Of a stretch of DNA of 409 bases, positions 2-409 are shown piece after piece; position 1 is the stretch's first letter; each line of letters opens with the position of its first letter. A program made the position numbers and the translations under genes. The DNA comes from a phage. The notes under the pieces are model-generated. The model had not been told where the DNA came from. It made no database searches and saw only the letters and a list, made by a program, of their open reading frames with translations. The stretch lies in the sequence record AY167111.1; one strand, given 5' to 3'.

Positions 2-409
2 GGGGCATCTGAGGCCGGTGTATGTATCCAGAATGATATAGGTGGACGTCTGCGAATTAATAATGGCGGAGCTATTCCCGGTGGTGGCGGTGGCGGCGGT
101 GGTTATTCACGAGCCAACAACTGGGCGGGAAAATATGTTTGTGGTGGCGGTGGCGGTCGTCCATTCGGCTTAGGCGGAAATAATGGTGCTCGATGGCCTG
201 GTGGTAATGCTAGTTTGACGTCTCCGGGTGCTGGCGGTAATACTGGTACAAGGTATTATGCAGGTGGAGGTGGTGAAGTTGGTCAGCCAGGACAATATGC
301 TAATCCAGGTGCTGGTTATTCAACACCTCCGACAAGTCCTGGTGCTGCTGTAGCAGGATCAGCTCCAACATGGCAGAATGTTGGAGCAATATATGGTCCA
401 AGAGTATAA
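2..409 (+). CDS. 5'-truncated CDS, C-terminal part of a glycine-rich protein; most likely a phage distal tail-fibre adhesin / receptor-binding domain (T2-type gp38-like). Stop TAA at 407-409.
   Basis: Frame 2 is open from nt 2 to 406 with no stop; the other two + frames hit stops within the first 45 nt (TGA 10-12, TAG 43-45). Translation: [135 protein letters not shown]. The supplied 64-aa ORF (215-409) is the tail of this frame, reported from an internal TTG. Product assignment comes from the polyglycine-motif / variable-segment architecture and phage-like codons, not from a database hit. Confidence 0.6.
81..96. repeat. Copy 1 of a perfect 16-bp direct repeat (gtggtggcggtggcgg) inside the Gly8 tract
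   Basis: Identical 16-mer at 81-96 and 141-156, checked base by base; flanking bases differ (80 g vs 140 t; 97 c vs 157 t). Spacing is 60 nt, i.e. 20 codons, in frame. Confidence 0.85.
141..156. repeat. Copy 2 of the perfect 16-bp direct repeat (gtggtggcggtggcgg) inside the Gly5 tract
   Basis: Same 16-mer as 81-96; encodes (C)GGGGG. Both copies use only GGT/GGC glycine codons. Confidence 0.85.

Follow-up and report, generated by a model that had tools for sequence, protein, structure and literature searches.

Which residues of a glycine-rich phage protein face the host receptor, and what that receptor is, are the questions raised by sequence record AY167111.1. The DNA analyzed, a stretch of 409 nucleotides referred to below as the window, had been described from its letters alone in an initial annotation. 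This annotation built on the premise of a polyglycine-II (PGII) sandwich and proposed that seven short, aromatic-rich segments between glycine runs are exposed receptor-contact loops whose sequence may specify an uncharacterised receptor. All seven peptides, here called segments 1 to 7, translate exactly from the positions given for them (nt 104-139, 158-172, 188-199, 248-259, 293-307, 317-340, and 368-406); segments 2 to 6 read RPFGL, ARWP, TRYY, QYANP, and YSTPPTSP.

Translation of the 409-nt window gave a single open frame of 135 codons in frame 2 of the plus strand (nt 2-406), closed by a TAA stop (nt 407-409), whereas the other two plus-strand frames are interrupted by many stops. At the DNA level, the window is 99.0% identical across all 409 nt to gene 38 of phage AR1; for ~30 further phages of E. 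coli O157 and Shigella (Tequatrovirus and Mosigvirus, PP01 among them), identity is 93 to 98%. The AR1 homologue is a 259-codon coding sequence (157736-158515) flanked by g37, the gene for the distal subunit of the long tail fibre, and by holin gene t. The window corresponds to gp38 residues 125-259, and gp38 numbering (window residue + 124) is used throughout. The encoded fragment matched the Pfam family PF05268 (GP38) over profile positions 86-218 of 218 (E = 6.3e-34; 118.1 bits against a cut-off of 25) and PHROG 2056, "tail fiber protein; host specificity" (E = 3e-38). Its glycine-rich motifs (GRMs) alternate with hypervariable segments (HVSs) ahead of a conserved C-terminal motif, as in T2-type gp38. 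The gene order g37-g38-t is seen around the homologous gene in AR1, PP01, T2, T6, S16, and others; the window itself, at only 409 nt, carries no flanks, and genomic context, loop A, and the N-terminal attachment domain are visible in relatives only. This gp37-attachment domain, with its conserved tryptophans, lies upstream of the window and is present in the full 259-aa AR1 homologue. We conclude that the window derives from a T2-like phage, an AR1/PP01-type Tequatrovirus, and constitutes the 3' end of its gene 38.

The probability is negligible that the glycine-rich translation merely reflects a simple DNA repeat rich in GGN and that neither a real protein nor real loops lie behind it. Short GGTGGCGGT-type direct repeats do occur at nt 73-157 and 262-283, and mechanical open reading frames exist in other frames too. 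However, frame 2 alone is open through the whole window, the family and structure matches are strong, the region is an annotated coding sequence in dozens of phage genomes, and a homologous protein has been crystallized. The sole open frame, together with the matches to PF05268 and to the crystal structure 9V85, rules out a non-coding repeat.

[quoted passage not shown] Given this identity to the crystallized PP01 domain, the PGII-sandwich model applies to the window, and the structural premise of the initial annotation was borne out. An AF2 model of the 135-aa fragment was of moderate quality (mean pLDDT of 70; rmsd of ~12 Å to 9V85 over 135 columns), with strands predicted at fragment positions 115-117 and 123-129, inside the C-terminal module; when it was used as a Foldseek query, 9V85 (E = 5e-12; TM of 0.60) and 6F45 were the only significant PDB matches. 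Loop placement here follows the published description of 9V85, since an AF2 model of this quality is not independent proof of loop exposure.

In a fold of this kind, the conserved GRMs would form a three-layer lattice of polyglycine-II helices, traversed up and down by the chain. Hypervariable loops (B, C, D, and E in the window; A just upstream) would link successive passes distally and together make up the receptor-binding face of gp38, a monomeric adhesin predicted to cap the gp37 long-tail-fibre trimer. A modular model of GRMs and HVSs has been put forward previously (Trojet 2011; Dunne/Leiman), and the five distal loops have been described as hypervariable and host-range determining (PMC6851490). 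In S16 gp38, the long central PGII helix 3 is the equivalent of the window's Gly run 151-158 (PMC6851490). By analogy, what the literature reports for the fold, loop positions, and OmpC contacts of PP01 gp38, a protein 95% identical, probably holds for the window allele as well.

The PP01 crystal paper (PMC12892980) describes five putative recognition loops: A (W119-I124), B (Q161-V170), C (N184-W189), D (N204-Y209), and E (N225-S231). When these are placed on the window (Table 1), segments 1, 3, and 4 overlap loops B, C, and D, so the proposal of exposed receptor loops stands for these three. Segments 5 and 6 meet loop E only where they face each other: N225-P226 alone of QYANP (residues 222-226) and Y230-S231 alone of YSTPPTSP (residues 230-237) belong to the loop, with TPPTSP outside. 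The tip of loop E, G227-A228-G229 (nt 308-316), sits between these two segments and had been omitted as spacer. For segment 2 (residues 177-181) and segment 7 (residues 247-259), which lie inside no published loop, the proposal did not hold.

Table 1. Features of the 409-nt window of AY167111.1 (gp38 residue numbering)
Feature	Coordinates (nt)	Strand	Evidence or remark
C-terminal 135 residues of gp38 (125-259): end of beta-helix domain and most of PGII-sandwich receptor-binding domain	2-406	+	Open frame, PF05268, PHROG 2056, AR1, 9V85
Codons 128-129, GAG GCC (Glu-Ala); GAT GGC (Asp-Gly) in AR1, PP01, and all clade members	11-16	+	G129 invariant in 14 types
Codon 150, CCC (Pro); GCC (Ala) in relatives	77-79	+	Directly before Gly8 run; residue 150 otherwise A, C, or M in 14 types
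Glycine-rich motif GGGGGGGG (residues 151-158)	80-103	+	Nearly invariant in 14 gp38 types; S16 counterpart is PGII helix 3
Segment 1 (residues 159-170): Y159, S160, and distal loop B (residues 161-170, nt 110-139); hypervariable segment 1	104-139	+	PMC12892980; entropy 2.40 bits; 20% identity to other types
Codon 161, CGA (Arg); CAA (Gln) in AR1, PP01, and 11 other clade members	110-112	+	Private; loop B
Conserved block, residues 172-183, holding segment 2, RPFGL (158-172)	143-178	+	G172-G176, R177, P178, G180, and G183 invariant, F179 is F/Y/L in 14 types
Distal loop C, NNGARW (residues 184-189); segment 3, ARWP (188-199, residues 187-190), is its C-terminal half plus P190	179-196	+	PMC12892980; entropy 2.51 bits
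Distal loop D, NTGTRY (residues 204-209); segment 4, TRYY (248-259, residues 207-210), is its C-terminal half plus Y210	239-256	+	PMC12892980; entropy 2.13 bits
Distal loop E, NPGAGYS (residues 225-231), main PP01 specificity determinant	302-322	+	PMC12892980; identical in window
TPPTSP (residues 232-237), Pro-rich, outside loop E	323-340	+	Loop E ends at S231; aligned to Gly-rich "GGAAG" of other types
Conserved C-terminal module (residues 238-259), including segment 7 (368-406, residues 247-259)	341-406	+	Returns to beta-helix domain; conservation in 14 types
Stop codon TAA of gene 38	407-409	+	Coincides with end of AR1 CDS 157736-158515

The conserved block of residues 172-183 belongs to the scaffold, probably as two PGII strands joined by a turn, RPFGL, at the proximal (phage-facing) end of the sandwich; the proximal position would follow from the published alternating up-down topology, since RPFGL lies halfway from distal loop B to distal loop C. 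TPPTSP, for its part, is likely to be the last extended (PGII/PPII-like) strand of the sandwich in a proline-rich version, not a loop. In the alignment, the columns of residues 234-237 are mostly G-G-A-A in the other gp38 types. Where those types have their last Gly-rich motif (G-G-A-A-G), the AR1/PP01 type and, in part, phage PSD2001 carry a run rich in proline instead, which suggests that a polyproline-II strand stands in for a polyglycine-II strand in the sandwich.

For the comparison with gp38 proteins of phages with known receptors, a set of 29 sequences was assembled from phage records and IMG/VR loci and reduced to 14 RBD types sharing <85% identity. The receptors published within this set are OmpC (AR1, PP01, and S16), OmpF/FadL (T2), Tsx (T6 and FL23), and OmpA (FL20 and FL18). 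A search of a large protein database with the 135-aa query returned only 11 matches, none of them from the AR1/PP01 clusters; the likely cause is the Gly-rich, low-complexity composition of the query. In tblastn searches of phage records, the C-terminal fragment, subject to low-complexity filtering, gave 54 matches, versus 970 for the N-terminal domain of AR1 gp38.

Across the 14 types, the loops had entropies of 2.1 to 2.5 bits and the Gly blocks between them 0.65 bits. Calculated by segment, mean column entropy was 2.40 bits for segment 1, 2.45 for segment 3, 2.08 for segment 4, 1.93 for segment 5, and 1.80 for segment 6, so these five are hypervariable (1.80 to 2.45 bits), unlike RPFGL (0.69 bits) and the C-terminal segment 7 (1.07 bits), the value for glycines outside the segments being 0.65 bits. 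In segment 2, R177, P178, and G180 are invariant, residue 179 is F, Y, or L, and L181 alone varies. In the C-terminal module, G238, A240, W248, G252, and G256 are invariant, and V241, G243, P246, I254, and Y255 are nearly so. The Tsx phage T6 is identical to the window at 13 of 13 positions of segment 7 and at 4 of 5 positions of segment 2. Since segments 2 and 7 are conserved among phages that use Tsx, OmpA, OmpF/FadL, and OmpC, they fail as specificity loops, and the same conservation across receptor classes refutes them as contact loops; the initial annotation had itself counted conservation across phages with different hosts against its proposal. We conclude that the R-P-F-G core, like the last 22 residues of the protein, is conserved scaffold and makes no receptor contacts.

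The description of the segments as aromatic-rich and inter-glycine was only partly accurate. Glycine accounts for 42 of the 135 residues of the window, and all 11 aromatic residues fall inside the 51 segment residues (11/47 non-Gly residues inside versus 0/46 outside; P = 5e-4, Fisher test, a post hoc and purely descriptive value, the segments having been picked by eye for aromatics). However, true Gly runs border segments 1 to 4 only, while segments 5 and 6 are bordered by single glycines in P-G-x-G contexts. Aromatic residues make up 15% of the variable segments in the AR1/PP01 type, versus 4% of the rest of the domain, whereas in other gp38 types the enrichment is weak or absent (6 to 13% of variable segments versus 4 to 10%).

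Among the named relatives, gp38 of AR1, an O157:H7-specific T-even phage (BAI83267.1 / AAG29755.1), is identical to the window at 131 of 135 residues. The two proteins agree in loops C, D, and E, RPFGL, TPPTSP, the C terminus, and R208; they differ where AR1 carries D128, G129, A150, and Q161 and the window carries E, A, P, and R. Loop by loop, the identities to AR1 are 9/10 (B), 6/6 (C), 6/6 (D), and 7/7 (E), the sole difference being Q161R. PP01 gp38 (9V85; mBio 2026, PMC12892980) is equal in length and register over its 128 identical residues of 135, and it differs from the window at Q161/R, G208/R, N236/S, and S257/P (PP01/window) in addition to the three N-terminal private changes of the window.

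S16 gp38 (6F45; Dunne et al. 2018) resembles the window type in having a beta-helix, a three-layer PGII sandwich, and five distal hypervariable loops, in using OmpC, and in sharing the GRMs, an R-P-(L)-G turn, and the C-terminal W-x-N-V-G motif. It differs in that RBD identity is ~46% and the loops are unrelated to those of the window (0 to 1 identical residues per loop); the same receptor class is therefore reached via different loops. The gp38 proteins of T2 (OmpF/FadL), T6 and FL23 (Tsx), and FL20 and FL18 (OmpA) have the same GRM/HVS architecture, with a nearly identical R-P-F-G core and C terminus, but all four hypervariable segments differ from those of the window (0 to 3 identical residues per loop), consistent with their different receptors.

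The receptor of PP01 is OmpC of E. coli O157 (PMC12892980), and PMC9603124, citing Yu et al. 2000, gives OmpC as the receptor of AR1 as well. With OmpC serving the 95%-identical PP01 and, according to that citation, the 99%-identical AR1, the suggestion of an uncharacterised receptor is not upheld. It is very improbable that all seven segments are exposed receptor-contact loops whose sequence specifies a receptor still to be characterised. Although five of the seven overlap hypervariable regions and every aromatic residue of the window lies within them, such a reading conflicts with the receptor assignments of these two close relatives, with the R-P-x-G core that is invariant, and the C terminus that is conserved, across Tsx, OmpA, OmpF/FadL, and OmpC phages, and with the published loops, which leave out residues 177-181, 232-237, and 247-259.

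The contacts of PP01 gp38 have been probed in some detail. pBPA at position 208 in loop D cross-links to S225/P226 in extracellular loop 5 of OmpC(O157), and pBPA at Y230 in loop E cross-links to V304-R308 in loop 7 (PMC12892980). A GVIN insertion in OmpC loop 7 is needed for PP01 adsorption and is sufficient in K-12 OmpC loop 7 in a ΔGFTS background (PMC12892980). The loop E tip, G227-A228-G229, is reported to insert into an OmpC cleft, and the loop E changes A228D, ΔA228, ΔY230, and Y230P abolish infectivity (PMC12892980). Infectivity is also abolished by Y209A/S/L and Y159A, apparently through mispositioning of loop E, while residue 208 is dispensable although it cross-links to OmpC loop 5 (PMC12892980). 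Residues 158-170 are essential for adsorption; Q161L, K168N, and Y169G lower infectivity, and K168 and Y169 in loop B have been proposed to contact LPS sugars (PMC12892980). In loop C, W189R is a reported host-range mutation of PP01 (PMC6027323). The published gp38-OmpC complex is a restraint-guided model and not an experimental complex structure.

The window matches PP01 at every one of these functionally probed residues but two: position 161, where it has R and PP01 has Q, and position 208, where it shares R with AR1 and PP01 has G. The published mechanism is therefore the most likely one for the window allele. Under this mechanism, OmpC loops 5 and 7 would flank the cleft that receives loop E (NPGAGYS), loop D would contact OmpC loop 5, and loops B and D, via Y159 and Y209, would hold loop E in place. 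K168 and Y169 of loop B would probably touch LPS sugars, and the Gly-rich lattice, the R-P-F-G turn, and the C terminus would serve as the invariant scaffold. We estimate a probability of roughly 93% that the window encodes a gp38 PGII-sandwich adhesin in which loops B to E bind OmpC of E. coli O157:H7 and the RPFG core and C terminus act as scaffold. By analogy with PP01 gp38, the window allele would be expected to behave like that protein, including in OmpC-dependent adsorption.

Four nucleotides (nt 13, 15, 77, and 111) distinguish the window from both AR1 records, and each of these changes is nonsynonymous (D128E, G129A, A150P, and Q161R). All four changes are absent from 13 clade relatives, and the variant sequences tested were not found in 50,697 phage records, IMG/VR, or the metagenome collection. 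According to PMC6027323, which cites Morita 2002, Q161R and Q161H were selected in PP01 and permit infection of ompC-null O157; Q161H arose in experimental evolution (PMC6027323).

It is conceivable, if on balance unlikely, that the window represents a host-range variant of AR1 gp38, of natural or laboratory origin, in which Q161R, possibly with D128E, G129A, and A150P, loosens or shifts receptor dependence. Such a variant could, for example, adsorb independently of OmpC via LPS or another outer-membrane component, or it could have a wider host range. The exclusively nonsynonymous differences from AR1, their absence from the relatives and collections searched, the ompC-null infection phenotype reported for Q161R and Q161H in PP01, and the LPS-sugar contacts proposed for loop-B residues K168 and Y169 would all fit this scenario. 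However, four changes in 409 nt are equally explicable as sequencing or editing errors. In addition, G129A and A150P fall at family-wide conserved positions, where they look more like error or damage than adaptation, and loops C, D, and E, the last of which is the main determinant, are the same as in AR1. The preferred reading remains that of an OmpC-binding gp38 of the AR1/PP01 type.

Within the AR1/PP01 clade, variable sites were not significantly concentrated in loops B to E (3/11; P = 0.43). Residue 208 (nt 251-253) is R in the window, AR1, KNP5, and UFV-AREG1, G in most other members, and deleted in e11/2, while residue 228 at the loop E tip is A, S, or N.

The fold, loops, and OmpC contacts of an OmpC-binding gp38 have already been published for near-identical proteins, so the finding brings no new biology. 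What is new in the window is limited to the four private substitutions; one of them, the loop-B change Q161R, points to a host-range phenotype documented in PP01. Since gp38 loops provide a handle for predicting or re-engineering T-even phage host range in detection and therapy, their correct location matters. The practical gain is a corrected map that separates specificity loops B, C, D, and E from conserved scaffold among the flagged peptides.

Several gp38 sequences met in the searches were rearranged at Gly runs. In a T6/Tsx-type gp38 open reading frame that starts at locus position 601 of L006 (IMGVR_UViG_2974787500_000001), a tandem duplication of "YYSPFSQMRLTFGGGGG" yields a 277-aa protein; the duplicated unit comprises hypervariable segment 1 and the following Gly run, and it looks like the product of unequal recombination between glycine-rich motifs. 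At least one hypervariable segment is missing from the database gp38 proteins P0001, P0008, P0009, and P0011, with breakpoints located exactly within Gly runs; P0001 is AR1-like and lacks loop B. These four could be natural GRM-mediated deletions, in which case they are probably non-functional given the results of deletions in T6, or could reflect assembly slippage. The Gly-run rearrangements fit the published idea of GRMs as recombination points, with assembly slippage as the alternative. Finally, gp38 of Escherichia phage PSD2001 (L023; Gaprivervirus; locus 701-1486) matches the AR1/PP01 type at 9/10, 4/6, 4/6, and 6/7 residues of loops B, C, D, and E, but its scaffold and C terminus differ (AWGATGTIYGSWL, RB51-like), and it appears to be a mosaic across genera.
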